Shown here: piece after piece, positions 1 through 41,042 of the stretch
How positions within the stretch are numbered: the first letter of the stretch is position 1
How the letters are laid out: every line of letters begins with the position of its first letter
DNA from: Candidatus Omnitrophota bacterium
GTDB lineage: Bacteria; Omnitrophota; Gorgyraeia; Velamenicoccales; JABMQK01
DNA length: 64,000 nt
Direction of reading: 5' to 3'
Assembly: GCA_028711115.1 (NCBI GenBank)
Contig: JAQTSV010000001.1
Location: 6,032 to 70,031 of the forward strand
Position numbers and translations under genes: made by a program
The notes under the pieces: generated by a model
What the model saw: the letters and a program-made list of their open reading frames with translations, nothing else
What the model was told of the DNA's origin: nothing
The model's database searches: none

Positions 1-3000
1 GCTTATTAAGAGTGAGCTAATTTCATCTCTGTTTGTCAGCGCCATATTCTCTAATTGCTGTATCTGTGCATTGATGTATTCAAATATGGCTTTTGTTCTT
101 TCGTCGCGGAGCCCGTTCTCTGTATTGAATAAAGTTATGCCTGCGCCAACAGAACCTTTTACCAAATCCAAATCTCCGCCTCTGCCTTCTCTTAACTGCG
201 CCATCAAACCTGTCTGCAATTCTATATTGCCAACGCCCGATATAATTCTTTCCACAAAGTTTCGCTGCATTCTATTGTTTAGTCTATTTTCTGAGCCAGC
301 CAACACATCTCTATCAATGCTTGCGCTATAATATGCGGCGCCTAAAATTTCTCTCAACTCTTCCATGCTGTTTGTCGCTAAATCATCTATGGCTATGGGA
401 ATAGTTTTTGTCCCTGTAACTTGCTGATAATTTTCTCTTGCTGTCTGCAGCGCCTGTTGTGCGTCCTGCCAATTAGAGAGCAATTCATTAGGAATATTTG
501 CATAGCGCGGTTCATAAGTATTATATGTAAGGCCTTGTGCCTGCCAAATATCTTTTAATTCCTGCGGTATTTCTCCGCCTTCGAATAACCTTACTCTTAC
601 TGTAGCAGCCAATAAGTCTAAGTAAGCCAGCTTGATCTCTTGTTCTTTTTCTAATTTTGCGCGTTCCAATGTGAGCAGGGCGTTAAAATAATTAAATATG
701 ACGTCATCCATCTCTTTAGATTCTTTGCCGTCTTTGGCGAAAACACCGCTCAGTGTATTCCAGGCCTCGCCGGGCGTGGCTGTGATAGAAGCGACTAATC
801 CGCCTAAGAATCCTCTGTTATTTGCATCACTGTGCTGCAGAAACGCCGACACATTAAAATGATTTTCCTGAAGTTTCTTTAATAATACCTTCCAGCCTTT
901 TTCATCTAATTTAGCCAATCTTTCTTCAAATGCCTTTAATGCTCTATCGACTTCTGGATGCTGAGCGCGATATTCTTTTTCGAATTCTCCGTTATTTAAA
1001 ATCGCCAGCGCGTCTTGTAATGTTGCGGCTTGAGGGCTTGCGTCTCGTTCTCGTTCGCTCATTATATCCACAAGCTGTTGTCTTAAACGCTCGTATGCGT
1101 CTAATTGTGCTCTTTCGTCCTGTATCTTTCTCTGGGCTTTATTTTCCTTATCTAAGTTGGTGTATAATCCTAATCTTAAAGGATTGACTGCTCTGCCGCC
1201 AAACCTGACTTCAAAATGCAAGTGCGCCTCGGTTAGGGCTGCGTTGCCTGTCCTTCCGCTCTTGGCGATTATTTCACCTTTGGTGACTTTTTTGCCTTCC
1301 ACAACTCCTTCTGCGGCATTTGACAAGTGCGCATAAACAGTTACTATGCCGTTACCATGATCAATCTTTACTGTAAAACCATATCCATCTAAATTGCCCA
1401 CAAATGAAACTGTTCCTTCTGCTGCGGCGTAGACATCCGTGCCTTCGCTGGCTCTGATATCAATACCTTCGTGGAAATTCTCCAGCTTGCTTCCCGCCGG
1501 GCGCTGCCTGAATCCGTATCTGGCAATTATGTTATTCTCTATGTCGCTGCCTGAAATCGGGAATATGGCGTCTAAATCATTCCAAGATTGTGAATAATTT
1601 CCGCTGACCGCAACTTCTTCTGACTGCTGGGTATTCCAATTAGCATCTGTCTTTGCCTGTAGCACACCATATAAATAATTGGCTGTATTTTCGTTCCATT
1701 CGCCTGTTATAGGCAGCCCATTTTCTTTTTGGAACCGCTGGATAAGCGCTTTGGTATTTTCTAAATATGCGATTAAGCTGTTGTCTTTGTTTGCGTCGTA
1801 ACCTTGGTTATCTATTACTTTATAACCTAATATATCCAAAAATTTTCTATAGAATACCGCCATTTCTTTTTCGGCAAGTTTCTCTTCGACTTTCTTTGCT
1901 GTCTGCTCATTCCATCTGCCTGTAACATCTATACCTAAATTCTTTTGCAGCTCGCTGATTATGTCTCTCATCTTGCCAGTAAACACATTATCTAATTGTG
2001 GATAACCAAAGTTTTCTCTTGCCTGAGCAACGCCAAGGACTATTAACAAGTTATAAATTCTGGAAACACGAGAATCAACGTCGCCTATGCCTAAATCTAT
2101 TGCATCCAAGCCGTACATTGTGGACCTGGCCGAGCTTACGGATAATTCGCGCTCCTTTTGTTCCTGTATTTTATATTTAGCCACTAATTCGGCTAATTTC
2201 TTTTCTCTTTCGCCTTCGCTATACTTGCTTTGCCTTATATCTTCTATTGCTCTCCTTATCTCAGTTAATTCTTTACGGATAGCTTCCTGCTCATCTGATA
2301 ATTTCTTGCGCGCTTCTTGTGTTTGGTCTTTCTCTTTATTATCTTTACCCTGGAACTCATTATCTAACCCCTGCAGGACATCTCGGTTATTGCTTAATAA
2401 TTCATTCAATGCCTCTATGACAACTTGTATGCCCACTTCCTTGCTCTTCAAATATCCCAGATGGGCATTAATTCTGTCTACTTCGAATGCGGAAAATTCC
2501 TGTGAATATTTTTCTAAAGTATTTATAAGTATATCAACATCAACCTGATAGTCATAATCTTTGGCAGCGGAAACGATATTTAATACGCTAATTACATATT
2601 CCAAATAATCGCTAAGATCTCTTGCCTGTTCAATCTTATTCAATAACTCCTTCGTAGGTAAACCCTGACCTTCCCTTATGCGCGAAATAAGCTCTGAAAG
2701 AGTTAAGTCTCTCAACTGTTTATTCCTATCTTCTGCGACAGCCCGGGAAATTGCGTATTTAATGCCTTCTAATTCTACCTTATCTTTCACTGTTTCTTCA
2801 GCTTTGCCTTGCGCAATCTTTAACTGTAAAACTAAAATGTGTAATATCTGTTCTTTTGTCTTCTTGCCTATTTCGATGCCGTTGTTATCGCCTTCGGGAA
2901 TATTAAATGCCCTTGTTAAAATAAGCAGCGCGTCCCGGATTTCCTTATCGCTGAATAACTCAACACCGGATAAATCCATACCGCCCTGAATCATCCTTAT

Positions 3001-6000
3001 AAACTGCTGCATCTTATCCTGCGATTGCTCTAATACGCCGATGCTTCTTAATGCCGCGACAAGATATTCTCTTTCGACTTCCGGCTGCTTAATTCTCTCT
3101 ATAAGATATTCGGACTGCATATTCCTTAGCTGGGTTCTTGCCTGGGAAATTTCTGCGTTTAATTTATTTACTTTATCTAGTTTTTGTTTTAACGCTTCGC
3201 TATCCTGCGGATTAACAACAGTCTTGTTTAATTGCGTTAATTCTTTCTCCTTATCGCTAATAAACTTCTTCTTTTCTGCTATTTGCCTGCTGGCATCATC
3301 TGCTGGCTCGTTTTGCTGTGGCTCTGAAACATCCAATGTTTCTCTGTTGCTGCGGTTATTATTAACCATCTCTCTAACTTTGCTTTCTAAGTTGCTAACA
3401 TCGGTGTTTGCTTTATTTTTATCTGCTAGATAGCCTTTTAATTTAACCTCCAGCTCATGAATTCTCTGTTTTTCTTCCGGCGTAACATCAACTTTTGTTA
3501 TTAATCTTATGTATTCTTCTGTCTCCGGAATATGATTTATGGCAGCTTTATTTATTTCTATTCTTGCCTTGGCAATAACTATCTTCTCATTAACCAATTC
3601 TAATAATTCCTTGATTAATTCCTTTATTTCTGCGGATGTAGGTTCTGCTGAGGTGGCGGTATAGTTATGTCTCTTTCTAAAAGCATCAAGTCCTTTTTTC
3701 ATATCTTTGTCTTGCGGCTTAGCGTCGCCTAATGCGCGCAACATAGTCAGTATTTCACCTACGTTCAGCTGCGGATTGGTTTCATTCTGCAATTTCTCTA
3801 ACCGCGCTTTTTCTTTATCCAATTCTTTAGAAATACGTTCTTGTTCTGCAATGCCTAACTCTGCCTTCAGGCGTTCAATCTGCATTTCCATATCCAATAT
3901 CTTTGCATCAGCTTTACCAGATGTGGTTTCTTCTGCCTGCGCAGACTGAAGATCAAATTCAATAACCTTCTTCATTCTCTTAATCCTTGCTTCCTCTAAA
4001 GTGATACCTTCGTGCTGCGCCGACTGGATGTCTCTTATATCGCCTTCGCCGCCAAGCAAACTATAAATCCCCTGGCTGAATATTCCCTGGCTGGCAACTG
4101 GATTCATGCCTGTGGCCAATCCGTATAATCCTTCAAAAGAACCGATAACTTCATTACCAATTCCTATGATAGAACCTTGTACGGCTGTATCGGCAGCTCC
4201 CTGCAGCGTATTCTTGCCGCCTTCGAATGCGTGGGCGATGTTACTTATGGGCTCAAAAAATTGGCCGACTTCAGGAATTTCCACAAGATAATCTGCGCTG
4301 TTTGTAATGGCGCTGATTTCCGTTCCGATTATATACATTCCGCCGAAGCTCCTCCATGACTGGCCGGCAAAGTGCAAATAAATCTTTAAATAAATATTTT
4401 TTGTGAATAATTTTATCTTCGCATAATTTCCTAAAATAAATGCCAAGCCTGCAATTACAGGTATGGCTAAAACTATGATTCCCAACACAGGAGAAATAAC
4501 CCAGGCCTTTGCAGCTAATAATGGCAGGGCGAATGTGGCTAAATTGGCGAATGTAATAATCATCGGCTTTGTCTTATATGCAAACCTTGCCTTTCTTTGC
4601 GCGTCCTTTGATTTCATCTTAATTACAATCGGCTCATCTTTATTTTCATTTAATTCATTGAGTTCCTCTAATAATTTAGTGCGTATAGCCTTAATTAATG
4701 CCGGCTTAAACCTGGACTTGATTAAACCCAGCTCGTATAAATTCTTTATTGTATCCAATACTTTCTGTTTTTCTGCCGCGTCTTTATATTCCCTGGTAAG
4801 GGCTATGTAGATATCCGTTAGCTTCATACTGAAGCCGCCTACCATTTGTTTGGCCATAGCATATTTGGCAGGAATGCCGATTACCATATAACCTAAAACA
4901 ATAAGCAGCACTCTTAAAATTTGCCCTTGTGTATGCTGTATGCCTAAATTGCTTAATAAAGTTAAATTCTCCTGGCTTAAATGCATCCAGGCAATCAAAG
5001 ATTCTTTTACGTAAAATCCTAATACGCTGCCTAATATACCGGCAAACCCTACGCCTATTGCCGCGATTAAGATTCTTGCAAAATACAATCCGATGTAACC
5101 CGATAAGACTGGGTTATTGATGATAAATTTTTCTCTTCCTGCGCCCCTTATCTTAACTCCTGACTTTACGAGCTGATCATAAGCCTCCGCTTCGTCTTTT
5201 ATCTTTTGATAAAGTGTTGCATTGAGAAGATTATGGTCGTATGGCAACGCGGCTTTTGCCTTGGTGTATTCTACGGCGATGTCGCCTGCCTTGGTATTTG
5301 CCTCCTGCCTGTCCATAAAGAAGTTCCAGAATACTGAAACTAGATATCCGCCGAACACGCTCATAAATAATCCCAGGATTATAGCTGTAAATGTTATGTT
5401 TATCGCAGGAACAGTCACTATCACGAAGGCAGATATGGCCATCCAGATGTAGGTCTCGTAGGAAGCCAAAACTTTCCTAGGTTTAAAATAATCAATTATA
5501 GAATGCCTGTTCTGATTTCTTAAATCTCTGCGTATTCTGCCAAAAGCCCAGTATTCGGCAGGCGTGAAATTGGGTTTAAAGCCTAATCTTTTCTTAAGAC
5601 TATTGGTTATATAGGCGACTTTACCTTTTGCCAGCCTTCTTACGCTCACTACATTGTGGAATAATGACCAGGCAATAATTAAACCAACAAAAGAGTATAT
5701 TGCTGTATATACAAGTGGCACTAATAATGGCGAAATTCCCCAGCCCGCAACATTCAAAGCAGGAATCATTGTAAATAAATATGTAGAAATAATGACGAGT
5801 GTCAATAAGAATGCCACAACATAGCCGGAAGATAATATTGTGCCGAGTTTGGTATTCTTTATGGAAGGAGCGTTCTTTATGGCGGGAATCTTGGAAACTA
5901 ACTTTAATATCAATGTAGCTAAAGTCGAAATTGCAGCCAAGAGTATTGCCGGATGTTCACTGAATAACGCAATTAACAATTCCATAACCAAAGCTGGGGT

Positions 6001-9000
6001 TAAATTACTAGTAAGAGGAAGTAATACTAAAATAATTACGAAAAAGATTCGTAGCGCTAATTTATGAGAAGATAAAACTGAAGATTTAGGCGTAGTCTTT
6101 GTTGAATCTGTTGTATTGTCATCGGATATCGGGCTGCTGGAAATTCCTGTCTTTTCGGCTGACAGGCCTGCCTCCTTCACCGCCCTTGTCTGACTGACAT
6201 TGCCAATGCCGGCAATTTGGCTCAAATCTTGTTTAGTCATATTAAACGCAGCAATCGGGCTGGAGGATTCTCTCTCAATGCGTTCTTCTTGCATAACTAA
6301 TCTTACCGTGTGTATCTGGCCTAATTCTAAATTTGCTTTAGCCAATCTGTCATTTATTCCCAATAGATCAAATGAAACCTCAATGACTTGAGCAATAATT
6401 CCTGTGGCGATATCGAAAACAAATGTTTCATGTCTTTTTAATAATTTTAATTCTCTCGCCCTTTCTCGCATAATCATACCAGCCGTGATCACGTTAGGAT
6501 TCAATTCAAGGCTAAACTTTCTGATTACTTCTTCAATATGCCTTAATTCTAACAGACCGCTTAAAGGAGTTGTCCAGCCTCTTACTTTATCATTCAATGG
6601 CAAGCCTTTTGACTGCTCAAAAGCTTCTCCGCACTTTGCAATGAGGGCACGGTCACTTAATTCTCCACCGATCAATTCAGCAAGTGCTGTTTCAAATGCT
6701 GGTATTGGTGAACCATCCGGCATCCTTACAATAGTATCGCTATAGTCAGCAACAGCAAGTGCCCTGGGGCTCAAATGCTTTGTTTGAGGATGTGCGTTTT
6801 GGAGTTGGCTGCGGACTAACTGTTCGCTAAATGCATCTCCTTCTACATTAACTAAGAGCTGATTTTCAAACCATTTCACCATCCTGTTATCGCCTAAAAC
6901 CCATGTTCCAGGCGCATATGCTTTTGACCCTACAGTAGCAAGAGGATTATTCGTTTCTATTATTTCTCCTGTGAATATAAACCGTTTTTGTATCGGGCTA
7001 GAGGAAATTCCAACCCCATCCAGAGACCCAGCAACAGCGGGGGTGGTGCTGTTTCTCTGCCAAGCCTCTGGATTGGTTTGTATACCTATCTCTACTTCCT
7101 TCCTGCCACGGTAGGATGAGATAGGTGACGAAGAAATTCTATATCCGGATAATATAGCTTTAAACACAAGCCACACAATCGCCTTGTTGACATCATCATA
7201 TTCATTTATACGATTAAGCCATTGTATTGCCTCATCTGATGTTTTTGTAAATACCACTATTGTTTGCGGAGTATCTTTAGAATCTAAACTACGGATAATT
7301 TCATTGTTTACAAAATCATAAACTTCAAAATTTAAATTGCGGTATCTTTGTAATTCTTCGATATAAGCGCGGCGGCTGGCTTCTCTTAATGTGTAGAATT
7401 CATTGGTGGCTTCCATAGGAACAAATATTATGGTGCGTCTTTTTGCCTGGAACATATCGGACACTATCTGCCTGAATGTCTGATAGTGGCATACGCCAAA
7501 AGCGCCGCCTGTGACAACGAAAATATCGCCGGCTTCTAACATTGTTACCTGGGCCTGGCCTTCCACTAAACCGGCCTGTGAATGATAGGCAAATGTTCCT
7601 TTTCTTGTTTCATCTTGGCGCGGATAATTTGTGCCTGCGCTTATGGAATTAAGGGCAATCCTTCTGTCAATTATTTCGCTGTAATATAACGGGTCTATAC
7701 CTTCAGCCATTTTCTCATGAATCTTTGATTCGGTATTGCCGACATGGGTAATTGCGAGCGTGGATTCAGGATTTGATCCAGCCACCAAGAACTCAATAAT
7801 GCGGTTTATGAACTGCGCATTCATACTTACTAAATCCAGAGGGCTGCTGGAGGGGGTATTGCCAACAGCCAATTTCTCTGGATAAGTTTGCTCCTCTGCA
7901 CCTGCCACGGTAGGCGAGGAGCTGGTTTGTTCATTATTTATAATTCTATATCTGATCGGGGACGAAGCCCGGGATGTTCTTTTTAATTCACGTTGCAATG
8001 GTTGATCTTTCTTGCTTAAATATGCCAATCTATTCATTATCTCCATAGCTGATATTCGACCTTGAGTCACTACTTCTAAATTGGCAACTTCCTCGTCTAC
8101 TCCGGTAAGCGCTGCGCTAAGCAGGAATCCGTTTACAAAATTTAGTTTTCTCTGCAAGTTCCACCTTCTCCATAATGTATCAGCTGCCTCTATTACCTGT
8201 TTCTTCATATTTGATGGGCTGGAGCTGGTTCTTGTCTCTTTCACATCCATAGTGCTGCTGGAGGGGGTATTGCCAGCAGCACTTGGATTTTTATATGTTG
8301 CTCTGAAAGCACCTGCCACGGTAGGCCTCAAAGCAACCTGTGAATAAAATCTATCTGTTAAATTATTATTATTGATAATTACGGGTGAGGATATTGACGT
8401 GTCTATATTTGTCTGACGACCTGGCTCCTGTTTCAGGATGGGCGATGAGCCAGCCGCCATAATCGGAGTTGGCGCCAATCCTGTGCGAAGTGTCTGGGCT
8501 AAAGAAGCAATTACAGGGCTGTGATTTATGTTAAACTGCTCATCTATTGTCAAAACTCTTTCGCTTAAAGACGTAACGGAATTTACAGTAATCGGCGAAG
8601 AAGATCTTCCTCTGCCTGTGAATCCCGTGCTTCTGGCATTTCTTCTATTATTCCTGCCAGACATTTTGATAACAACTTTGGATGCTACTCTAATAATTCC
8701 TAAAACAACTTTCACTATACCTATAATAGAAACCAGCGTGATAACTGCCAAGTGCGTTACTGCACCTTGCCTTTTCTCAAAGTTTCCATGTATTGCCCTT
8801 TGCACAAATTTTGTTTCTCCCAAAACTTTTGCCGTTAACTTTGCCCTGAAAATTTCCAAGCGGCTCAAGCCTGAATATAGTCTGTATCTTATATGACCGT
8901 CGCCAGGGATTTTTAACCTTATTTCCCGCTTGCGCGCATAAAGCCTGTAAGCAGAATACAATCCTAAGATAACAAGTGCTCCCGCTGCAAAGAACTCAGC

Positions 9001-12000
9001 TATCCTCTCGCCTATTGTCATCATCATTCTATGCCTTGCCTGACGTTCTGCCTGTTGTATTGTTTCCTGCGATTGTGTATATTCACTATGAGACTTTTCT
9101 ATTTCTCTTTTTACCAATTCAGAAATTAGTTCGCCGTTTAACAAATATCCTCTTTCTTGTAAATGCGCGGTGAGTTCATTTAATTTTTCATTCCTGTAAG
9201 CATATTGTTCCGGATTATTTCTTATATTCAATGCCTCCTGGGCAAGCAGCCTGTATGTGTCTGGTGAAACATTCTGATCAAAGATAGGTAATACCCAATC
9301 GCTTGCACCATAACCATAGAGGTATTTCTCGACATAACCTTCGCTTAGGAAGAAAGCCAATAAAGAAGCCAGTTTATAGTCAAAAACCTGGCTTTCACGC
9401 GGATTGTCGTGTTCAATAAGCCTGAAATAAACTCTCTTTCTGCCTACGATTTCTAATCTGGAATTACGTTCCGTTAAAAGCTCATAACGCAACTTATCTT
9501 GTTCTGCATTGACAATACCTTTATATAATGCCAGAAACTCCAGACGTTTCCTCATATAGTTAATAGGCTCGGCGAGCCTCTTTCCTTTTTCAGTCTTGAT
9601 ATTCTTGGTCCATTCTATGTTTCCGTTGAATCTCGCAATCGCCCTGTCCACATTTGTGGTGCCGCAGTTGTACGCGGCGATAGTGGCCAAAGCCACGTCA
9701 AATCCATTGCCGTGCAGGCTGGCATAATCCAAAGTCTTGTCGGTTAACTGAGAACCAACCAAGACTTTCCTGCTATACCTGTCCCAGAGATACCACAAAT
9801 AGCTGTAGCCGATTCTCTGGTTATATAATTTATCGGTTTCGATTCTGCCGGTTCTTCTTTCTTGTTTCTTTGCCTTTTTGGTACCGGCAATGTATTCCTG
9901 GAGAGCGGCTTTTTTCTGTTTATTATCCAGTGTATGGTTATTATAAATCATTTCTACAATATCTCTGCCGATATTATCCCTGAATACCTTCATTCTTTGT
10001 ATATCTCTCGGGATCATTGCTATTGCTTCTGCGAAACTGGCCGGGCTAAATCCTGTATTGGGATTGGCCCTTACAAGCCCTTCGGGAATATTCTCCAACA
10101 TCTTTTCTATTGCTGCTTTTTCTTCAGCACCTGCCTTTAACCAAGCCGCAGCCAAGACATAATAGAGATTTACTCCCACAAGATTTTTGTCATCAATTAT
10201 CCTGCTATTTATTCTTCTCATCGCCTTTTGTTTATTGCCCGTATTATTGTACAATTTTATTAAATCTGCGATAACCTGATTACCTATATATCCTCTATCT
10301 GTCTCTTCTTCGCCCGCAAGCGAACCTACCCTTAATAATATGTCAAACAACATATTCACCATATGGTCTACAGCGTAATGCGGTACAACCTGGGTTGTCC
10401 CCAGGGCGCCTCTATAGGAAGTCACGACCAAAATCCTTCCCCATTTATCCAGCTGGAATTGCCTGAAGGCGGATTCGATATAATTCATCGACTCGGCCAA
10501 GTGCATAAATTCTTGTGATGCACCTGTTGCCGCCACAAATCTCTCTAATTCTTTGTATGTCAGGGTCTTGGTCCATTCTTGGATATCAGAAGGAACTGCG
10601 GAGAAGGATATCTTGGATATCTGCCGGTCTAATAATTCGTCCAATTTCTTTGCATCCTGTTCGTGCTCGCCGATTAATAATCTGATGTATAATTTACCTT
10701 CTCTTTCTTCAAAATCGACGAATTCAGCCAAACCATTTTCAGTTAAAACGCTTATTAATGTATCGTAATTTTGGGATCCTATAAATTGTTTCTCATCCGT
10801 AAATCCACGCACCTCTGCGCGCAAATCTGTGGGGTTCTCAAAGAATGTCGGCTGCGATGGCTGAGGCATAGTTGCCTTATGCTCAATTTGCCTACAGCTA
10901 TTCAAAGCCATAGCCAAAACTATAACTAATAATAAACTCCTGACCAACGGTGTCTTTCTAAACACCTCTAACGGCGAGGAAGCAGTCGCGCCTTCAAATC
11001 TTGCGCGATTGTCTCGGATGTATTGTAAAGAAGGTGCGACATACGGATGACTGATTTCTTGTTCCGGCATACGCTTTAACATCTCATCTAATAATTTCAA
11101 ACTAATCTTAATAACATCCAAGCGTTCATTTTCTTTCATCAATAACTCTAAATCCCTAATCATTCCAGCCCTGAAACTATCAAGTTCTTTTCCTTTTGTG
11201 AGCTCCTCAAGATATGACTCTCTGCCAAATGCCTCTAACACAGCCAAGGCAACATCCATTCTTGTTACTGTGAACTCTAATTCTGGGTATTGAGCCTCTA
11301 CTCCGTTGCTGGCTTCTCTACAGCCCTCTCCGGCTCCGATCAAACCAACCAGGAGCGCTGTAATAAAAATATCAAGATTAAATGGCTCGACGTTTCCAAA
11401 ATCAATAATTACTGCCTCATCTGTTGACTCGTTTGTTAATATGTTCATCGGCGTAGGATCTAAAATGAATTCTGACCCTTGCAGTTCTTTTACAATGGAA
11501 GCATAAACCTTAACCGCGTGGTAAAATAGTTTTAACCATCGTTCTTTTCTATCTTTAAGTTCTTCTCCTGCTCGAGGCTGCATTAACTTATCTAATCTGG
11601 GGAACTTTATATAGGCCTCTGTCCACATACCCTCCTGCCCTTTTTCTCTTTCTATAATCAAGGAGGCAGACCTAAGGGCTGTGGGCCGAGATGAAAGTAT
11701 CATATGCCTAAGGACTTCTCTGTTTAAACTTGACCACTTCCAATCCTGCCTTCTTACCACGCTATGTCTTATTGGCTTTACTACAAATTTGTATGTGGTG
11801 ATTTTTCCATTGATAAGAGCATCGACTTCCACCAAGAATACTGTCTTAAAAGCACCTTCATCTAAAAATCTTATCCTGGAACTAACCATTTGTTCCAATG
11901 TTAACCTGACATTATGTTCAATGAAGATAGTCTTTCTGGCCAGGGCATTTTCAGCCATATGTCTCAATATATATCTCCTTGCCCGCATGTAATCTTCTTT

Positions 12001-18000: not shown

Positions 18001-21000
18001 TCCTATATATTCTGTGGCTAAGTGGATAAATTCGTGGGCGCCGTGTCCTATATTGTATTCGCCATCCAAATTGGGTGTGATGGAGAGCTTCCCATTGCCA
18101 AATTCCCTAAATGAGAAGTTCCAACCAGCATCGACATGTATTCCATCCGCTTGAACTTGTGCTCCTGTTTTGGCACCTGTCTCATTTGTTAAGCTGTATA
18201 ATCCTGCAACTATAAGCTGGGCATTAGATCCCGCTATATTTACACCAAACATTCTCTGTATTGTTTCTCTGCCTCTTTGCCCTAGGTTGTCTATTTTATA
18301 TCGCATAATTGGCTTCATGGCTTCGATTACGCTCTCTGGGGTACGAAGCTGCAATCCTTTGAGATCAGTTAATGACTTTTGATAAGCATCTATTACAGCC
18401 TGCCACTGGTCTACGCTCTTACCTAAAAATGTTCCTGGTGCTCTATCTTTATAACTGATGAACGTACCGTCTTTTGCACGGAAACCTTGTTCTTTTGCCC
18501 TCTGTTGTGCCCTCATCAATTTGCTCACCATAGAATCTGCATATCGAATTGCCTGTCCGCGGCTAAATACATGTACGCCTTCCGCTCCGCCGTAAGGGCT
18601 TAAGATTTCCTGGAATATTTCGCTAATCTGAGGGCCGACAATAGGTCCGAACATCGCGTTAAGAGGAATGAAATTCAAGCCTATCTGGATTAACTGTTCT
18701 GTAACAGTTTCTTCCACAGTGCCTGTTACCAGTAAATTTGTCAGACGCTCGGCGCCTATAATTCCTGCTGTCGCAGACCTTGGCGAAGTCTTAAATAAAG
18801 CCCTGGCGCCAAAAGTCTTTTCCATTCCCTGGCCCAATGCCTGGAATTTCAAACCAACATTCTTAATATTACCTATATCCTTAATATTGGAGAATACCGG
18901 CTCAGCAATCGGCTGCAATAAAGCCAAGGCAGCTGAGAAGTAAACATTGGTCATATCTAATTTACCCCAGGCAGAACTTACTGTCTTAGGCATTTCGTCC
19001 CATGAAGAAATTTTTGCCAGACCTGTCTTTTCATCCACGCCGAATAAACCTGCGGAATAGGCGCGACCTACAACCTTTGCTGCCAATGCCAATTTTTCCA
19101 TAAAACTTGCGCCTTGCCACAAGGATTTTCCGTCTTTATCATAAAGGAGGTCTTGATATTTTCTGGCGCTTCCCGGAATAATTTCTCCGGTCTGAGGATT
19201 AACCTCGTCTTGCCGCCAGAAAGCTCCCAGTGTGTAATTCCACAAAGACTTTTCTAAATCAGTGTAAGCAGCAGGGCTTATATATTCCCTTGTTAAGAAC
19301 GATGTGCCTTCAATAACGCCCTGCAGAGGAGCGATGACTGTCAGCAAATTCACAACTGTGCCTCTTAAGGCAAAATCCCAAACTGCTGCTTTGTAAATTG
19401 CAAGGCTGTATCCTGCGACGTTACCGGAGAATTTATTCAATACAGAAGACTTTTGTTTTTCTACTAAAGATTTATATACGGGTGAATCTTTTATTGTCTT
19501 AAAATCTACGCCGGCTTTTCTCTGTTGTGCCACATATCTATCTGCCTTCCATCCAGGAATGCCACCTATTGCAGACATAGCTAAATTTACCCAGCCTACA
19601 ATATTTAACGCCCAACCCGCTATGTTTACAGACTTACCTACATCTAAGCCACCGATTGCCACTCCGTTAAGCCCGAATCTACCACTGGAATTACCCCAAT
19701 CGCGCAATAAACTGCCGGCGTCAATCATCACCATTGATGCCGCAAAAGGATGTTCTATTCCGAATTTCTGGACTTCTGCCAAACTGACACTGCCTAATCT
19801 GTTAATCAAACTGAATGCGCCGAATCCTGCTGTGATAACGCCGCCCCATTTAAGTAAAGTGCTGGCATTTGTGCCTTTTAATTTATCCAATGTTCCTATT
19901 TTATAAGCTGCGTAACCGCCAGCCAGCATACCTACAGGGACTAAACCTGCTTGCGGTTTAATAACGCCTTGTTTATATAGGGAAGTTAAACCTAATAATC
20001 CTAATGCGATAGCACCAACTCCACCCCACTGCAATAATTCACCGATAGGAGTTTGGTCTAATTTTCCTGTATGGCCAAATATATTAACCAATGCCCCGCC
20101 GCCAACCAACTTCATAGACACACTATACCTTGCCAGCATTTTTTGTATCTGGAACATATCCATTGTCTGGCCAGGCTTAACCGATTTTGTCAAATCTAAC
20201 TTAAAGAAACTCTCGATAATATCTTTAAACGTTGCACCGTTTGTCCAATAATCTCTCGCGCCCATTTTAATTCCGCCCGAAAATCCCTCCGCCTCATGCA
20301 GCGTTCCATCTTTGTATACCTGCATAGAAGTCTTGGCGACTTTGGTTATCGCCAATATACTTGCACCCAATAATAGAGCAGCCACCAAATCACTTGTTTC
20401 GCCAACGCGTTCGTATACATATCTGCCGTTGCTGCCAATAACTGGTTCGCCATTATCCATTTTCTTTGCATAAACATCATGTTTTCTGAATAGGTATGGC
20501 CTAGTGGCATCTGCTAAATCAAACTGCTTTTTCTTAGGATCTAGCCTTGTCTCTGCCCAACCGATAAGCGGATCAAAGGTCATCTTTTTAATTCCATAGA
20601 ACAGTGCAGTTGTAGAGACTAAATCTAAACCTGTGAGTGTAGCTTTTGCGCCAAGTTTTACCAGAGAGGGTAGATTCCTAAGGCCGAACGCGCCAATTAA
20701 TCCGCCCACCATGATGTCGGTCCATATGTCATCACCCCTCTTAAGCCCGATGGCCAAACCTGAAGCCGCGCCTATTGTGCTGTATATCGCAGTATATTTC
20801 ATTTCTTGTCCAAACTTCTGCCAACCTTTTAACTGACCAGATTTCTTACCAAAAGCCCAATCTGCTTTCTTTGCAAGCCAGTTATTAGATGTTATCCCTT
20901 TTGTACCGTATGCCTGTAATGATTTATACCAAACAGCGTGGCTTGCTATTTTAGTGCCTAAGCTTAAGCCAATGCCAAAAATAACTAAGCCTGTATCAGC

Positions 21001-24000
21001 GAGAATGTTCTCAAAAATGCCAGGGTCATCGCTGCGTGTTGCTAAATAAAACATTCCTGCACCAGTGCCCATTAAGCCAACAGGTATTGCTATCTTACCT
21101 AAAGTTCCTTGTCTGGCTACCGCCTTATATAATTGTATATTTCTTGAGCCAGCCCATTTGCCTAAGCGTGTATTGGCTGCCAACTTAAAACTATTGAATA
21201 TAAAACTAAGCCCAATGGCGCCGCGTGCAACACTATCCATGCCATAGGCAAGTGATGTAATCTGTTTCTGAATCTCATCCAATCCGCCCTGGTTGCCGCC
21301 CATAACAATAGGAATCATGATATTAAAAGCTGTATTTGCCACGACTAAATTTGCAGCGCTATTATGCACCTTGTTCATAAATGGGGATCTACCAGATGCT
21401 CTTGCCTTAAATCCAGCCATCGCGCCAAAAAGGCTTCCCAATAACATTCCGTATTCTGTAGCGCCGGCTTCGGGGACTTGTCCTGCATTAACACCTTTGA
21501 GCAATTCTTTTGCCTGTTTTGCAAATGCGAATAATTCACCCACTGTTTGAGGCAGATTGGTTAATGCTCTTACAGTATAACTTCCGCTGGCAGCCTGCGT
21601 GAATGCACTGGCATATGAGAATAAGAATGCACCTACTCCTGCCCTTAAGCCGCCGACATTGCTTGTAAGATACCTTCCAACCTCAAATGCCTCTGCCATC
21701 CTGATATCATCAATATCTCTGGCCCAGCTATTATTATCTAAAAGACCAAAGATATTCCTTAAATTGCCGGCTGCAGCAATTATATTTCTTCCGGGATTAA
21801 GCAAAATACCTGCAATTCCTTTTGCGCTGCCAAGATTACCAAACAGAGAACCAGTAATCTGAACATTGCCATTCCCATCTCTCTTTACTGTAGTCAAATT
21901 ATAATCTATGTCTGCTAAAACAGTAGAAGCCAGCATAGAATAGAATGGATGTTTCACTACTGAAAATCCTGTCCAGCGTGCGCCTGCGCCCATGCCAAAA
22001 CCTGTAAGCACATTGCCGAAACTAAAACCATTAATCAAAATATTAGCACCTACGCCTATGCCACCCCAAATTGCGGTGTATTTTGTATGATAAATTAACC
22101 TACTCAAAAATGACGTTGCGGGGACATTTACACCTAACGCTTTACCTGCAATTGTTGGCCCAAATACCAAGGCATTGCGTGCAATTCCAGCGATTAACGC
22201 GCCTGTGGTGGAAGCATTTACATATCCTGAAGTAGTTCTTTCGTTACTTGGTGTGGAAAGGTGATAATAAATTGTATTTGCTGCTGCGCCTGCGCCAGCC
22301 CAACCTAAAGTATATTTTGCATGTTGCAGTGCCTGGCTTAACACTGAGGAGCCGTCGACAACTTCTTTACCTAATAATTTAGCAAGGAATTTGCCTCCGC
22401 TTTTTGGTGTTATGCTGCCGCTTACAAATCCAAAAGCAAAAGCAGTAAATGCTGTGCCAACTGAAAAATCAATCTTATCAGATACTGCAGCAGCTATGCT
22501 ATACACACCTGCGCTTATACCGCCCCTGAGGAAGCGGGCAAGCAATATTTGCGTTATTTCTGCCTTAGCTAACTGTCCTAATAATAACTTTCCAGAAATA
22601 GTTATAAGCTTACCGCCAACCCAAACATCGAGTGCGCTTAAAGCTCCCTTAAAAACTATCTCGCCGCCAGAAACTGTATAGTATTGTTCAAAATTTGTGC
22701 CTAATCTATTAGTCCATAAATTTTTTACGTCAGAAGCACCGTTTTTTACCCAGTTTTTATATGAATCTATGCCCACTAAACCTGCTGCCTGGGCAAAAAG
22801 ATGATGTTCTAAAATACCGATATTGAGGAAAGTCCCTCCTATATTTTTACCGAACCAATAACCGACTGCCGAATACCAGTGAGCGCTATTTCTATGAACC
22901 TTTCCCTCCAGGTCCGTAGTTGCAATTCCCGGTATCAGATTACTGATATATCCAGACCTGGTTACTATTTCCTTTACGCCGTGTTTATTTTCTAAAACTA
23001 ATTCTCCGAATTCGCTGATAGCGGAGATTTTGATATCAGGGTTGCTTAATGCTTTATTCAAATTATCTATTGTTGATGTATCGATTCCTTCTCGTGGAAT
23101 AGCCCCTCTGGACAACAATCCTTCTTCTTTAATCTGGTCTTTGTATTTTGCAGCCACGGCGCCTTGCTCGTCAAACACAGAGCCTTTGTCATCAAACATT
23201 AACTTATTGCCTTCTGCCCTGAGCCTGAATTTTTCTACTACCGGTATTTCGCCGTTATAAACATTTGTCCTTGTGCCTACGAGCTGCTGTCCTTCGGGAA
23301 TAGTCAATTGTGCATTAATTAAGTTAACAGTTACAAAGCCATTTAACGGGAAGTCCATCTTGAGTTTGCCATTATTGTATAAAACCATGTCATTGGTAAG
23401 AGAGAAAACATCGGCGATAGTTGCATCATCGCTAAAAGGAGAACCTCCGGGCCTGCCTTCCCGGCCTTGGCCTTGCTGCTCGGAGAAATATTCTTTAAAT
23501 GTGTTGATCGGTGAAGGATTGATAATACCTTGGCCTTCTCCATTTACATTTGCCATAAAATAGCTTGAAGAGAGCCAAGTCTGATTACGAAAATCTGTGG
23601 TGGATAAAGAAACCTTGAAATCTTTTGGTTCTTTGATAATCTTTGCGTTCTCTATCGGCTGTTGAGTAATATGAGATGTAACTTCTAACCTGCCTACAGT
23701 ATCACCGGGCAATAAGTATTCTCCGTTAAATAGCTGCCCTATATAATTCTTGGGCGAGAGAACATAGGAATTATAATCCTGGGTCAGTGTTCCTTCGCCT
23801 TCGAATTTAAATTCCGTATTATTTTTTACGCCTATAAATTGATATGCCTTATTTGACCAAATCCCGTATTGGCCGGTATAGCCATATTTTCCGATGCCTG
23901 TGATTGTGGGTGCGTTGGCATAGGCATGGCTTTTGCTTACATCGATAAAACCTGTGTTATCGGATACGTAAGCCCTGCCGCCAGCATCAATAAGGTATGC

Positions 24001-27000
24001 CCCCTGGAAAATGCCGGAGAATTCTTCATTGTCTCCGCTCAATTTCAGAGGCTTTCCAGATTCATTAGAATAACTAAGAGGCGTTCCGGCTCCTATTAAA
24101 CCAAGGTGTTCTAAAGTAACCTTGTGCTCTTCCTGCCATTCCTTTCCCGGTCCTCCTAAAATCGTAACCAAACTCGCTACGCCCGGCATACCCCAAGCAG
24201 AAGTAGCTGCATTGCTAAGAGGAGACAAAGCGAGAGCTTCTCTATATATATTGGCTCTGCCTTTATTTACAATTTGATTATCTTCTACATTGAGACCATA
24301 ATAAGCGATCTGTGTTCTGTCTTTGTTGTCCTTCCATACTGATTCGGAATTACCTTGCAGTGTTTCAATACCGCCTCTGCCCGAAGATGTTCCGCCTGCG
24401 TTTATCGGTATTTCTACAGGATATTTATTTCCTTGAGAGAAATCTGGATTTGCAAAAGAGAATATTAATCTATTCGCTTCTGCACTATAGAAACTCTTCT
24501 CAGGGGCAAAATCAAACGTGGAGATAATTTCATGGCCTGCCTGATTTACACCAGCAATGCCATAGAGTTTAGAAACTCTTATGGATGCCGAGGATTGTGC
24601 ATTACCTATATTATAAGTATGTTGGTTGAGCTTAATATCCTGGACATACTCTGCAGCATAAGGCGCTCCTCTCTCTACGCTTGCATAAGAGGCGTCAAAA
24701 ATAACATTGGGGGCATAATACACTCCTGCCTGGCCGCCTGTTTCTTTCTTTACGCTTGTATATACACCAAAGGGATAAGAAAATTCTCCGTTTACTAAAG
24801 CAACGTCTCTGCCATTAACAGGATGAATATCAATTTCTGCACCGGGAGCATAATCCCTTAGTCCTTCTCCCAATCCCGTATCAAACCAGACTTCATCTTT
24901 TGTTATATACTTATTGGGAATATTGAATAAGTCTTCGCCTAAACCTAAAAATCTTAACACAGTCTGGTTGACAGAATATTCGTTGAGTATGGGTGTTTGT
25001 ATATTTGTCTTTTGTGTGGCGTGTTCTCCGAATTCGCCGATCTCTACAGTAACTCCTTGTTCTTGTCTGGGTTTCGTATTTGCACTCTGCGACGCAGCTG
25101 AACCTGTGTTTCCAGAAATAGCAAATCCTAACCAACCGAAGTAATTATTCATTTCCGGAGAACCGACAATATATGGATTGCTGCCTTTGGTAACAAGTTT
25201 TACATTATCATACCTGGCTAACAGCTGTTCGCCGGATTTAAATACCTGTTTTCCGCGGTTGCCGTCTACTGTGAAATCTATGCTTAAATTAGAATCAAAA
25301 TCTGTGATGCCTGCACTTTTAGCAAGCTTTCTTCCCCAATTCAGTATTGCATTTCTTAAGCCATCATCTAATGACGCTCCATTTACTATCTCATTCCTGG
25401 CTCTTTTTATCTCTTGCGGTATCTTGAATTCATCTCCAAACCTATTTAATGCGTCTTGCTCTGAAAGAATTAAGACTGATTTAACAAATTCATAGGCCTT
25501 GGCGAAATTATCTACGATGAGTTCGTTATTGCGATAAATATAATCCTTGCTTATACCTTTGTTAGCAGCTGTTACCATTCCTTTGTTATTAATAATGTTG
25601 AAATCCTGGGGATGGTCTCTCTGCAAAACAAATGATAAAACTTTGCTGGGATTTGTATTTTCAACATTGACTTTCCAGATGCGCGATAATATTCCGAGAT
25701 TATCTACGGCGAAATGTTCGGTGAAAAATTCGTTAGGCACACCTCTTCCTTGCGGCGCAATTAACATTCTTGTGCCAACGGAGACATCATCGACCAAGAA
25801 TCCCTGATTCAAGTGCAAGGCGTTATTGTCTTGTAATTTTATCTTTCCCCATTCCTCTTTAGAGAAAACTTCGTTTGTAGCACTAGGATTATTATTTAAA
25901 AGGTTACCTATTGTAGTGGGAGAAAGCACTGCATCGTCAAAAACTGTTTTACCTGTACTGGTGTCCAGTTTTATAACTTCATTTAAAAGGGATATGTCTG
26001 CCGGGGATACTCCTCTATCTTTCTTTGCAAAAATATCCAGTTCACTTGAGCCTGTTTCGCCATACTGCATTCTCTCGGTAGGGACATTTGTTACCAGGGC
26101 GTAGTCGGGTTTTATTTTCTTCTGTCCGTCAAAATCTAATTCTTTCCCGCCTTTACTATAGGCAACTATTCCTCGCTGATTGGCAATCCCTGCTCCTGAC
26201 GGCGTAGGTGCGCCTTGAGATCCCAGAGGGAATAAAGATTGTGTCTCCCAGAGCCCGACTCCATCTGCCATTACCTTATAAGTATTGTATTCTGTATTGC
26301 CAAGCGTCCTGGAAGATATGCCTTTTACTTTTCCTAAACTTAAGTCCGCAATTCCTTCTTTAATGCCGTTTGCGCCGTTTACTGCCGAACCCATCACTCC
26401 CGTATATACATCGGAAGTATTTTCAACATTGGCAGGAATATATAATTGAATATCTCCGATGGTGTTAATTCCAAACCGTCCTTCTATACCCTGGCTGGCG
26501 ATGAGCCGGGAGACTATCTCTCCTTCATTGTCATAACCCCAGCTTATCTTGCGATAAGTCTCATCTTCTCTGCCTGTAAATTTACCTTTGCCGACTAGGC
26601 CCCAGCCTTCAACGCCGCCGGGATTGGCCCTGCCAAAAATAATTTCAGCGCCTTGTTCCAAACCATTCAGATAGAGCATATCGATACTGTTTGTCTTGGA
26701 GTGCTGGAATGTATCTGTTCCTGGTGTTACAAAAATGGCTTTGTTGTCGATATTTTCTTTGGCGGTGAAACGAGAGAACCATCCGTAATTTTCTATGAAA
26801 CTCTGGCCTGCTAAAATAAATTCTAAGTTTCCTTCAGCTCTGAATACATTGCCTGCGTCATAAAGACCAAGGTTCGTGGTAGAAAGATATCCTGAACCCT
26901 GCATAGGATTGGAAGCAGCAGGAGCTGTGCCTTCGGATGAACCTGCCGCGACTGTTCCTTGTTTATGGTCAAGGGAAACTGATTGAGAATCAAAAATTTC

Positions 27001-30000
27001 AGGTTTCAGGGAGGCGATTGTAGAAGAGATATAGTGCGTGCCTTGTGCTGTAGTAGCTATGGTAAATGATGGCCTTGTGCCTCTGTCAATCCTTTCGGTA
27101 ATATCTTTTCCTTTAAAATCCTGGCGGATATACGCGCCTTGCAAAGGAGCATAACCTAATGGACCAACTTCATAATGTAGCCTATCTCCCCTATCTGTAA
27201 CTTTGGCGCTAACAGCATATCCCCGGACATCTATGCCTGTTGCTGTGAAATAATTACCATTATCTATATTAAGCAACTCATTAAAGAAATTATCTAATTT
27301 ATTATCTTTCTTTAAATCAGCGTATGTCCTTCCTTTGTCTAATCCGTATTTGCTTAACAGGCCGACTATAGCCTGGTTACCTTTACCTATATTAGTTAAT
27401 GTGGCGAGGTCTTCTACTTTTAATTTTATTCCATCTGAAGTAAGAATTAATTCTAAAGGACTATTAACATCCACATTTACATCCGCCACTGTCAGTGTTC
27501 TCGTACCTTCATTGGTGCCTGCGGATGTTGCAATAACATCAGAAGCCAGTCTCGCATCTCTTATGCCGACCGGGGAATTGGTTTCATTGAATGCAATGCC
27601 GCCCAGATCGTTGCCAAGTTTAGACCATGTTTCTGCACCAACTACTCCGTCTGCCTTCAGGCCATTGGCTTTCTGAAAATCTATTACAGCCTGCCTGGAC
27701 ATCGGCCCAAACCTACCGTCAATCTCGCCATTATAATAACCGGCATTCTTTAAGGCGGTCTGTATCTGTTTGGCGGTCGGCTGCATAACAACATTAAATC
27801 CTTCTATCAAATTACCGCTATTGTTTATACCCAGAGGAATCAATCTTGACTCAGGCGTATATTGAATTGCCGCCATTTCAAATTGATTATCATTATTATT
27901 TGCTAAATAGAGTCTGTAATTTCCTTCCCAGTTAAGAACTCCTTCTTGACGCTTTGCGTTAAACCTTGCTGTGGCACCTGCGGTGTTTGTAGGACGATTA
28001 TTAATTATGGCGATGCTGTCTCCTGACTCTAATTCAATTACAGGAGCATCTTGCCCTACTAATTTATAATGAGTGTCTCCGGCATAAAGTAAATTTGAAG
28101 GAGGCCTGCTGGTCTGCATTGTCTGGCCAGCCGCATTTGTTGCCCGTGCTCTTCCTTCAGGAGTGGTATCTATCACTTCTCTTGCGGCATCTGCATTGGC
28201 TATCCTATTTGTAATCTGCCATCCGCCTAAATTGCCTGGGGTGCTGTCTGCCCAGCCATTTAAAGAAGTACTGAGATCACTATTTATCAAAAGTCCCGGC
28301 TCAAAAGGCTTTAATCCTGATTCCTTATTTCTCTCATTAATTGCTTCTAAGGTTTGTCCTTGAGGCGGAATGGAAGAAACTTTAGTTACCTCTAGCGACG
28401 GAACTGTTAATTCCTCAGCGGAATCAACATTACCGGATTCAAGTACTAAGATCTTTCTGGTGCTGGGAGTGATAATTACAGCTTGCAAACCTTCGGCATT
28501 TTCTCCCACTGCCTGTCTTTTATCAGAAGTTGTTACTGTAAATGCGCCTAATCGCTGTCCTGCCTGCGTCTTAAAGTAATCCAGCTGTTGAATAATTTGT
28601 CCAACCTTGCCAATGGAATTACGCATTACCTGCGGAGTTATGCTTATAATCTTTCCCTCATCATCTCTCTGAATCTGTAAATCTACTTTATTAAGGTATA
28701 CATCTCCTGAAAAACCATCTCCTGTTGATCCCTGGACTAGATACAGAGGCTGATAGCTGTGGCCTTGGTTATCGCCAGTAAAAAGCTGAATCACAGTAGA
28801 ATCGTAAGAACCAATACCTGTTCCACCGAGAATGTTCGCATATGCGTTTATGGGTTCGCGGAAAGCCAAAGGAAAATCTTCTACAGTGAGATTCTTACCC
28901 TGTCCTATTCTGCCCGGTTCTATCCTGCTATAGAGTGATTCTAAATCAAGATCTTTGAGGTCGTCTTTTTTGCCGAATATTCTTACGTCTGTATTAGACA
29001 CTACTCTTGGTTCTGGACTTGTATTATATGTTTTTTCAACCTCTCTTATCTTCTCGCTTTCTGACTTTTCATAAACCTGGGGTTTATTCGTCCTATAATT
29101 TAGAGTCGTTACAAAAGGACTGTTGTCTAAAGAAGGCGAGATAAAAGCCATGCCTCTTTTATTCAACCATTCTTCATATTGGTATTTAGCAATATTAACT
29201 TCGTTGACTTCAGCAAAATGCGTGGTGGCTACATATGATCCACTATCGTCCCATGTGCCTTGTTCTGGATTATATACTGAAACTATATTCTGGGCTCCGC
29301 CTAAGTTTCTTCTGGATTTAACTACGATATCTTCCCGAGTAGCTACGACCTTTCGTTCTTTCTCTGTTGCTATGGCTGCTGTGGCTGTGCTGCCGGGATA
29401 TGCTGCTGATTTCAGTGTTTGTTCTATTTGTCTCTGCGTAATCTGTTCTGTATTATGCTGTGCAGTTTCAACATCTATATCATTGCCATTGACCAGCCAT
29501 GACTGCATAGTTCTGGCTCTTGCTGCATTAGAGCCTGAAGCAGGAGAGGTAACTGTAAAACCAAAAATATCTATGCTTTCAATATTATTCACGTGGCCTG
29601 TAGCTGTAGCTTTTGTGGTTTTCTTATCCAATAGTTCTATGACTTGGCCAGTGCTCTGGACATTAAGAACACCCGGGGCATAAAGCGCACGCTGATTATC
29701 GGGTGACACAACTTGAGGAGCGTTTTGTGGAAGATTCTCTTGGCTTGTTTTCTCAGTCTGCTTAAAATCCGTCTTGACCATTAATTGCGATACGGCTTCC
29801 TGAGGAATCATATTCTGCGCCCCGCCATTTTCGAAATCCAACAGGTAAGAAACTGTGCTGCCCTGATTTATCTGCCATACATTATCTTTACCTTCAACTT
29901 TGGATATGCGAGCTAAATTCCAAGCCGGCTGAAGCGGAATGCCTGATGCCGCAGCGCCACTATTATTATAAAGGTAGCTTAATGCCTGACTAAAACTGAA

Positions 30001-32991: not shown

Positions 32992-32998
32992 GTTTTAT

Positions 32999-33889: not shown

Positions 33890-33897
33890 ATCCTCTC

Positions 33898-34782: not shown

Positions 34783-34783
34783 C

Positions 34784-35017: not shown

Positions 35018-35018
35018 C

Positions 35019-37517: not shown

Positions 37518-37560
37518 CTGCAAAAATCTGCGAATATTTTTTGCAATAATTCTGCCAGAC

Positions 37561-39732: not shown

Positions 39733-39786
39733 TTCTGCCCTGTTATTTATGACTTATATAATATAGGCAGAAAATTCATTGCCCTC

Positions 39787-40113: not shown

Positions 40114-40152
40114 TTATTCACCCCCTAACTTAAGTAGTTAGTTTTAGTTTGA

Positions 40153-41041: not shown

Positions 41042-41042
41042 T

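Follow-up and report, generated by a model that had tools for sequence, protein, structure and literature searches.

A giant gene in an Omnitrophota genome

The stretch of DNA analysed here, 64,000 nucleotides from a Candidatus Omnitrophota bacterium that we refer to as the window, is dominated by a single open reading frame (ORF) on the minus strand. Window positions 1..32991 hold the 5' part, 10,997 codons, of a real gene whose length is at least 12,954 codons and whose product has its C-terminus beyond the window; this is the result of a stop map, translation, coding statistics and comparison with a database record. The frame is free of stops over positions 1-32994 (32,994 nt), compared with 2,718 nt for the runner-up in the window. 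When the plus strand is read in triplets phased 1-3, the earliest reverse-complement stop is found at 32995-32997, the CAT at 32989-32991 is the first ATG past that stop, and translation from it gives 10,997 residues with zero stops; the remaining two minus-strand frames contain 926 and 865 stops across the same stretch. From base composition, the probability of 10,997 stop-free codons occurring by chance is about 1e-328. Neighbouring genes end with TAA (14), TAG (10) and TGA (4), so the standard code is in use and codon reassignment, which we considered, is rejected. An earlier sequence-only reading of this DNA had described the same frame, start codon and in-frame stop, had dispensed with codon reassignment and had taken the ORF to be truncated by the window edge, and in each respect it was right. 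It had also noted that the ORF was absent from the ORF track, which is explained by the program that lists ORFs leaving out frames that run off an end.

The full extent of the gene is set by record GCA_028714715.1 (contig JAQTLW010000001.1), in which window position x equals record position x + 5872. According to the gene table of this contig the frame stays open through the 5,872 nt to the left of the window up to the contig end. The product called there has 12,939 residues counted from Met16 (record positions 2..38818); the record thus adds at least 1,957 codons to those in the window, and the ORF, still truncated, comprises at least 12,954 codons from Met1 (at least 38,862 nt). The public gene call begins at Met16 (position 32946) and the alternative ATG at 32991 sits 7 nt past the stop of the upstream TadC-like gene. 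The true start is probably the ATG at 32991 rather than the database start, because homologues conserve the sequence MISQ(A/T)RTKTGGFKTW from their first residue and one of them (P0006) has Ile in place of Met16.

The ORF has the properties expected of one coding sequence throughout its length. Correlation with the codon usage of 18 neighbouring genes is r = 0.87 in frame, compared with 0.35 and 0.21 for the shifted frames, and the three thirds of the ORF taken separately give 0.81, 0.84 and 0.87. Most 1,000-codon blocks show GC1 > GC2 > GC3, and Pfam domains occur in frame from amino acid (aa) 186 to aa 10,604. The view that the translation is protein-like throughout and not a chance product is therefore upheld. 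Self-comparison found a pair of tiny tandem repeats and, at 29% and 47% identity, two duplications that are old; there is no recent repeat in the ORF and collapse is rejected. Over window positions 22,999-43,889 there is 100% identity to three per-run Logan assemblies, two of which hold the first 4,822 codons. In addition, TadC, TadA and PstB are identical in three NCBI metagenome-assembled genomes (MAGs) named Candidatus Omnitrophota or Omnitrophica bacterium, a comparison that covered these three proteins.

The giant gene is the last member of a series of genes that all lie on the minus strand, separated by short gaps, from about position 41,700 down to position 1. In order of reading, these are a sigma-70-like promoter-like site at 41697-41668 (TTGACA-18-TATATT, 11 of 12 matches with a TG, the best of the region), a c-di-GMP-I riboswitch aptamer at 41650-41546 (RF01051, a marginal 36.6 bits against a gathering score of 35, and an alignment to a related model), a run of small Flp/pseudopilin-like genes within 39358..41494 (weak PF04021 matches, class III signal peptides of the G-x4-EY type), genes for three unassigned proteins, a TadB-like platform protein gene at 33898-34782, a TadC-like platform protein gene at 32999-33889 (both PF00482, T2SSF) and the giant gene. 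We found no strong terminator between the riboswitch or promoter-like site and the giant gene. The riboswitch lies directly upstream of the first flp-like gene in a run that ends at the giant gene. Control by c-di-GMP may extend over the whole pilin-tadBC-giant operon.

There is ample precedent for a gene of this kind in this phylum. West-Roberts et al. 2023 (10.1101/2023.11.21.568195) described giant proteins with C39 and an N-terminal signal peptide, many membrane helices, SLT, TIM and other glycolytic domains, SecA_DEAD and type II secretion system (T2SS) neighbours. Nielsen & Lui 2026 (10.64898/2026.06.07.730766) catalogued 916 proteins of at least 10,000 aa, the largest being 147,155 aa, including a 24-protein cluster of C39 architecture, and reported that T2SS/Tad genes, paired GspF-like genes among them, flank 13 of the 14 largest giants. 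Omnitrophota giant ORFs are also treated by Seymour et al. 2023 (PMC10066038), where the defining size is an ORF >20 kb; ours has 32,991 nt in the window alone. The gene is thus another example of the already documented Omnitrophota giants and is not among the largest of them, contrary to the earlier suggestion that it ranked with the largest bacterial ORFs. That reading fared better in stating that giant ORFs beside type II/Tad-like loci are known mainly from Omnitrophota and are linked to cell-wall attack, as both the published outline and the TadB- and TadC-like genes upstream bear out. By itself, then, the giant ORF is one more case of a phenomenon documented in hundreds of Omnitrophota genomes.

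Within that phenomenon, the closest likeness is to the C39-headed, Archaeovorin-type giants. Common features are the phylum, an ORF >20 kb, a signal peptide with C39 at the N-terminus, many hydrophobic segments, SLT-like and TIM domains, a predominance of unannotated sequence, and TadB/C (GspF-like) and Flp genes directly upstream. As the product comes from Omnitrophota, carries PF03412 and exceeds 10,000 aa, it also falls within the C39 architecture of Nielsen & Lui 2026. Its first 1,200 residues match six partial proteins at 39-61% identity; PF03412 is present in five of these, and the database name of four is 'cysteine peptidase family C39 domain-containing protein [Candidatus Omnitrophica/Omnitrophota]'. 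There are also differences. Archaeovorin-type giants exceed 30,000 aa and were studied as genes >90,000 bp, compared with at least 12,954 aa and at least 38.9 kb up to the contig end here. From the domain set found consistently in Archaeovorins, only the peptidases (C39 and M23) are seen in our protein; M23 goes without mention in West-Roberts et al. 2023, and SLT and TIM are listed there among the less common Archaeovorin domains. Methyltransferase, glycosyl hydrolase, SAM-methylase and HEAT domains gave no match in the 10,997 residues (Pfam, NCBIfam).

Modules of the encoded protein

By sequence, the protein has peptidoglycan-binding and predicted peptidoglycan-cleaving domains at both ends and, between them, a central string of modules divided by a conserved pentapeptide. 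It begins with a predicted Sec-type signal peptide (aa 1-35, 32887..32991; all coordinates in this section are on the minus strand) that has a basic n-region, the core VIALILVVTF and an AWA followed by VDYDW, where we infer cleavage to occur; hydropathy peaks at aa 18-36 and the feature is conserved in homologues P0001-P0006. A Peptidase C39 domain follows at aa ~120-275 (32167..32634). The PF03412 match (29.3 bits, cut-off 22) covers aa 186-275 and spans profile positions 42-128 only, and a candidate triad is provided by Cys131 (TCGAYS), His236 (EPHTVLV) and Asp252 (VDND); TCGAYSLYNL and DEPHTVLV...VDND are conserved among the homologues that cover them. Cysteine makes up about 0.1% of the 10,997 residues. 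Between aa 276 and 3400 the sole family match (Pfam, NCBIfam) is a PG_binding_1 domain at aa 1740-1792 (27616..27774; PF01471, E 3.6e-19). Next comes a Gly/Ala/Ser-rich, moderately hydrophobic region (aa 3401-4560, 19312..22791) with about 13 weak hydrophobic segments by Kyte-Doolittle analysis and composition, and with no family match. The only HExxH in the protein by pattern search is HEFIH at aa 4986-4990 (18022..18036); there is no family match there and to call it a protease site would be speculative.

The module string in the middle of the protein includes two paralogous modules of 214 and 218 residues (aa 5715-5928 and 5929-6146, 14554..15849) that are about 29% identical by self-BLAST and global alignment. 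It also includes a module with kinase-like motifs only (10981..12456), namely K7072 (FVVKPIR), D7178-x4-N7183 (LDPTPMN) and D7197 (IIDFGN). Pfam and NCBIfam gave no support for a kinase, a PDB sequence search gave one irrelevant weak match, and an AlphaFold2 single-sequence model reached a pLDDT of 46 with no significant Foldseek matches. The SLT-like module that follows (aa 7338-8130, 8602..10980) scores below the gathering threshold of PF01464 (14 bits, cut-off 21.3; E 0.038) and so falls short of family membership; it has ES at 7506-7507 and AYNCG at 7773, about 270 residues apart, and may work like an SLT. It opens, directly after a junction site at aa 7338, with a lipoprotein-like signal, RKTPLVRSLLLVIVLAMALNSC (aa 7343-7366, 10894-10917), and looks as if it once was, or still is, an independently exported protein.

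Beyond the module string lies a polytopic membrane block (aa 8975-9640, 4072..6069) with about 10 strong hydrophobic segments and the conserved motifs VFWNFFMDR, GLYFARILIA, RVLLIVLG, GGMYIIGTEISAIT and AHAFEGG. This is the only internal region for which an exhaustive HMMER search found homologues, four in number. A genome scan with the alignment of these homologues identified six loci, all Omnitrophota and all open throughout the 2,725-6,990 codons fetched. Scanning a metagenome collection returned only one of the known loci (L009), a scan of viral contigs found nothing, and a word-based search with aa 6846-8960 yielded nothing at E <= 1e-5. AlphaFold2 with a six-sequence alignment gave a pLDDT of 50 for the membrane block and we claim no fold for it. 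A highly charged region comes next (aa 9641-10300, 2092..4071; E+K+Q+R fraction 0.27-0.36, no family match) and is probably a coiled coil. The window part of the protein then finishes with two PG_binding_1 repeats (aa ~10320-10440, 1672..2034; PF01471, E 7.1e-11 in two stretches) and a Peptidase M23 domain (aa 10506-10604, 1180..1476; PF01551, E 3.4e-31) in which both zinc motifs are present, HEGID (HxxxD) at 10507 and HLHFE (HxH) at 10590. With a 19-residue Kyte-Doolittle window, the basis of all segment counts and topology given here, the whole protein shows 24 hydrophobic segments at >= 1.6 and 38 at >= 1.3. The domain mix first proposed from the sequence was C39-like, TIM, kinase-like, SLT and M23. 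Pfam bears out C39, TIM and M23; SLT is weak and below threshold, and the kinase stands on motifs. The earlier reading was not aware of a description of this mix and in this overstated its novelty; West-Roberts et al. 2023 are explicit about C39, SLT and TIM in such proteins.

The TIM module (aa 6553-6847, 12451..13335; PF00121, E 1.3e-52) is circularly permuted. The profile match covers positions 46-244 only and, in native order, only residues 62-255 of an ordinary triosephosphate isomerase align; once the last 57 residues of the module are moved to the front, residues 2-255 align at ~37-39% identity. The beta1-alpha1-beta2 unit carrying NWK (6796-6798) is thus found at the C-terminal end of the module. 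All of the catalytic residues (Asn/Lys, His and Glu) are kept, in NWK, in GHSETR at 6590, after which there is a 27-residue insertion, and in YEPIWAI at 6691. A degenerate N-terminal TIM fragment sits just upstream (aa 6508-6552, 13336-13470), which suggests that the permutation came about by duplication. All matches to a search with the module, at ~40% identity, were ordinary TIMs that stand alone, with not one giant relative among them. In comparison with these enzymes, the module differs in being embedded in a giant protein, in its strand order and in the insertion. As it lies between two of the junction sites considered below, we view it as a housekeeping enzyme fold that has been re-cut to fit between two junction motifs.

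A junction motif and putative arrest cores

The central module string (aa 5328-8955, 6127..17010, minus strand) contains 32 copies of the motif [S/A/V/I]-S-S-P-[I/L/V]. Counting the SSP core, 32 were observed where 1.9 were expected, the maximum in 200 shuffles being 6, and all 32 fall within aa 5328-8952 with none elsewhere in the giant protein. The residue after SSP is I, L or V at 30 of the 32 sites, and the preceding residue is mostly Ser or Ala. By comparison, the 29 other window proteins (9,295 residues) contain three SSP and lack the trailing I/L/V pattern. The sites match module ends: the permuted TIM is bracketed exactly, and the two paralogous modules both start and finish at SSP[IL]. 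The longest SSP-free interval (7338-8131) is the SLT-like module, opening with its lipoprotein-like signal and ending after two hydrophobic segments. SSP is encoded with Ser codons of either family and with each of the four Pro codons, and the bases on either side hold no information; variable codons indicate that selection acts at the peptide level and not on DNA, and on these grounds a DNA-level recombination signal or an RNA signal was rejected.

Similar sites occur in some of the related loci. L012 (protein P0127, 36% identity in the membrane block) has its 14 SSP sites upstream of the block, the ~2,300 residues beyond the block being free of them, and the ORF that follows has 6 in 715 residues. 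L009 (25% identity in the block) has six SSP[ILV] sites upstream of the block, four of which separate a Methyltransf_31 domain (2228-2349), an unassigned 154-residue piece, and a GNAT domain (2552-2651) together with HATPase_c_2 (2727-2844). The motif is lineage-variable among the sequences compared, because L005, L006, L008 and L010 have none or background numbers.

A second signal emerged from an unbiased scan for 4-mers in the family sequences. Outside the aligned membrane block no tetrapeptide was enriched more strongly than RAPP, which occurred 13 times in 8 of 12 sequences where 0.33 were expected; after duplicated sequences were dropped there were 11 where 0.32 were expected in 53,067 family residues, an excess of ~35-fold, or a RAPP about once per 4,800 residues. 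Single-substitution variants (xAPP, RxPP, RAxP, RAPx) reached at most ~5-fold on 1-3 counts, with the exception of RAMP (2 against 0.15). RAPP-bearing loci are L005, L006, L007, L009, L010 and L012, besides the window protein, in which it is found once, at aa 5700-5703 (ITPTRAPPAMQ; 15883..15894, minus strand); in the family the residues before it are often (Q/P)(P/T). The window protein also has one RAPG, the arrest core of ApcA type (PMC10951233), at aa 4850-4853 (18433..18444, minus strand); RAPG is not enriched in the family sequences. Neither tetrapeptide occurs in the neighbouring window proteins, and PPP runs are absent from the 10,997 residues of the giant protein. RAPP is a proven ribosome-arrest core on which EF-P has no relieving effect, and it is one of the tetrapeptides that bacterial proteomes avoid most strongly, being present in 186,182 of 168,430,932 proteins (PMC12992588). 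In several relatives RAPP is positioned 70-80 residues after one membrane segment and 22-46 before the next.

In known arrest peptides such as ApdA, ApdP, ApcA and SecM (PMC10951233, PMC7897499, PMC12992588) the same R-A-P-P or R-A-P-G core is found, in small secreted or membrane proteins, near the C-terminus and upstream of the gene that is regulated (PMC12992588). Here, in contrast, the motif is deep inside an ORF of >12,950 codons. Our hypothesis is that RAPP and RAPG act as elongation pause points in the giant ORF. If the RAPP excess holds phylum-wide, this would be the first arrest core used inside long ORFs as opposed to small leader peptides, and would be relevant to how cells translate and export a protein whose synthesis lasts many minutes.

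A plausible scenario that accommodates these features is that the giant protein is made together with the Tad-like apparatus, with which it would be co-expressed, possibly under c-di-GMP control, that it is anchored in the cell membrane, and that it is used for contact with a host or prey cell and for attack on that cell's wall. Our reasoning for the latter is that the protein has three PG_binding_1 domains, an SLT-like module and M23, which would suit it to attaching to the wall and opening it. The SSP[ILV] sites would serve for recognition at the junctions between modules and would most likely be places of proteolytic processing, where modules are released or loosened in the manner of a polyprotein, and pauses at RAPP or RAPG could couple very long translation to the export or membrane insertion of parts already made. 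Taken as a whole, a real Omnitrophota giant gene with this function and mechanism is the best explanation of our data, and we would put its probability at roughly 75%. The individual parts are held less firmly. That a protease recognizes SSP[ILV] is the reading we prefer for the motif, tentatively and at rather less than even odds. The more elaborate proposal of a polyprotein with punctuation, in which the SSP pentapeptide is a junction code for cutting or handing over modules and (Q/P)(P/T)RAPP marks programmed arrest checkpoints that hold up elongation of an ORF of >13,000 codons until earlier parts are exported or inserted in the membrane, is doubtful as a complete package.

MARTX toxins offer a parallel. 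They too are very large secreted or membrane-active bacterial proteins with a string of effector modules, and in them an internal cysteine protease cuts short, conserved sites between the modules. MARTX toxins, however, are type I secreted, have 3,500-5,300 aa and possess an InsP6-activated CPD that cuts them after Leu, whereas our protein has no sequence relationship with them, the motif is SSP[ILV], cleavage is hypothesized and the only recognized cysteine peptidase is C39.

Several observations weigh against this scenario or parts of it: (i) the SSP motif was spotted by eye prior to the statistical test, and it is absent or at background in the four related loci named above; (ii) C39 peptidases cut after Gly-Gly and not after Ser-Ser-Pro, and scans with Pfam and NCBIfam identified no protease whose specificity matches SSP; (iii) the topology comes from a hydropathy scan, which does not assign the SSP sites, TIM and C39 to one side of the membrane; (iv) the single RAPP and single RAPG of the window protein are both ~1,500 residues away from any strong hydrophobic segment; (v) SecA_DEAD, glycosyltransferase and NUDIX domains, typical of the Archaeovorin type, gave no match in the window protein (Pfam, NCBIfam), SecA_DEAD being reported near the C-terminus, where at least 1,957 residues lie beyond the window; (vi) nine of ten dark pieces (9,724 residues) had no family match (Pfam at E <= 1, NCBIfam) and both structure predictions were of low confidence (pLDDT 50 and 46); and (vii) the 3' two thirds of the giant ORF are seen in one MAG record only.

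The alternative that best survives is that the product remains one intact, membrane-anchored giant coat or adhesin, with SSP[ILV] serving as a structural linker or domain cap and RAPP having no translational effect. Published views of such proteins as extracellular coats or adhesins point this way, as do the shortness of many SSP intervals (just 12-60 residues, more like linker than released products), the lack of a protease of matching specificity in our scans and the existence of several homologues without the motif. We nevertheless consider it unlikely, if a serious competitor. A strict S-S-P followed by I/L/V at 30 of 32 sites, encoded by both Ser codon families, is unlike a generic linker, and a generic linker would not be expected to recur in homologues that share 25-36% identity in the membrane block. 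Moreover, RAPP is counter-selected as a ribosome staller, so a 35-fold excess is difficult to regard as neutral.

It has also to be considered that SSP[ILV] is a modification sequon, for example for O-glycosylation or for proline-directed Ser phosphorylation by the embedded kinase-like module, and not a cleavage site. Ser-Ser-Pro is a plausible context for Ser modification, glycosyltransferase domains are common among related giants (the SSP-rich ORF of L012 has a GT5 domain) and the module with kinase-like motifs is inside the SSP region. Set against this, Pfam and NCBIfam found no glycosyltransferase in the window part of the giant protein, assignment of the kinase lacks family and fold support, and modification does not account for sites that coincide with module ends; we therefore regard the idea as improbable. 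Least credible by far is that so long an ORF arose as an artefact, whether by chimeric or collapsed assembly or from a set of separate genes with stops lost by error: the sequence is indeed a MAG contig and L012 has equivalent content in consecutive ORFs (4,280+, 2,376, 158 and 3,911+ residues), but an artefact is hard to reconcile with zero stops in 10,997 codons against at least 865 in the other frames, uniform codon usage, the lack of repeats able to collapse, three other assemblies identical over the 5' 10 kb, two of them carrying the first 4,822 codons, and six related loci that are likewise fully open.

Returning to SSP[ILV] as candidate processing sites, the possibility of cleavage has been raised before, merely as such; the lack of known cleavage points was what blocked a module-wise analysis (West-Roberts et al. 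2023, 10.1101/2023.11.21.568195). Term searches of the 2023 and 2026 giant-gene preprints turned up no linkers, junction motifs or identified cleavage sites, and no junction motif, excess of RAPP or permuted TIM came to light in these preprints or in Seymour et al. 2023, which was searched for giant-ORF and Tad terms. Apparently new are the SSP junction motif, the excess of RAPP, the circular permutation of TIM and the riboswitch. The value of the finding lies in the SSP and RAPP signals, which make open questions about these proteins testable: SSP[ILV] sites are concrete candidate junctions that can be searched for neo-termini in proteomes and can serve to divide giants into modules whose structures are then predicted.

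Related loci and neighbouring genes

Two of the related loci deserve separate comment. In L012 (JGI 3300033149, Ga0366834_1016563, 1-23290) the homologous protein reaches a stop and is followed by ORFs of 2,376 aa (Glucan_synthase), 158 aa and 3,911+ aa (GT5, HPr, GNAT); the called start of P0127 is artificial, as the frame in L012 is open to the contig end. Because in L012 equivalent content is spread over several large ORFs in a row, the modules, judging from these sequences, need not be covalently joined, and content that is fused elsewhere can be split. In L010, from a Candidatus Omnitrophota MAG, the conserved membrane block occurs twice in protein P0130, which NCBI names a CPBP family glutamic-type intramembrane protease; going by that name, a predicted protease is embedded in a related giant. 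The window protein has no EExxxR CPBP motif.

Upstream of the operon that ends with the giant gene, and on the same strand, is the second half of the Tad-like system (53760..58489, Pfam). No prepilin peptidase was recognized among the scanned ORFs of the window. Between the two halves is a phosphate-uptake block (44040-53560, minus strand) comprising PhoU, PstB, PstA, PstC, PstS, a Porin_5 protein, two OmpR-type regulators and a PAS-HAMP histidine kinase; besides these phoU-pstBACS, porin and PhoB/PhoR-like regulator genes, those further upstream include DUF192 and a SurA-like PPIase. The second half encodes a TadZ/CpaE-like (ParA/MinD family) protein fused to TadA/CpaF (T2SSE) in 721 residues (53760-55925), an RcpA/CpaC secretin (55969-57624) with a C-terminal TonB_C domain (PF03544, E 2e-14), a fusion that is unusual for a Tad secretin, and RcpC/CpaB. 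Together the halves supply a TadA ATPase, the TadB/TadC platform, a secretin, RcpC/CpaB and Flp pilins. In this the locus resembles the Tad/Flp (type IVc) pilus of predatory bacteria, which likewise has TadB, TadC, TadZ-TadA, RcpA/CpaC, RcpC/CpaB and several Flp-like pilins. It differs from that system in that it is split by pst-phoU-porin-phoBR, its secretin carries TonB_C, TadZ and TadA are fused, and a giant gene follows tadC.

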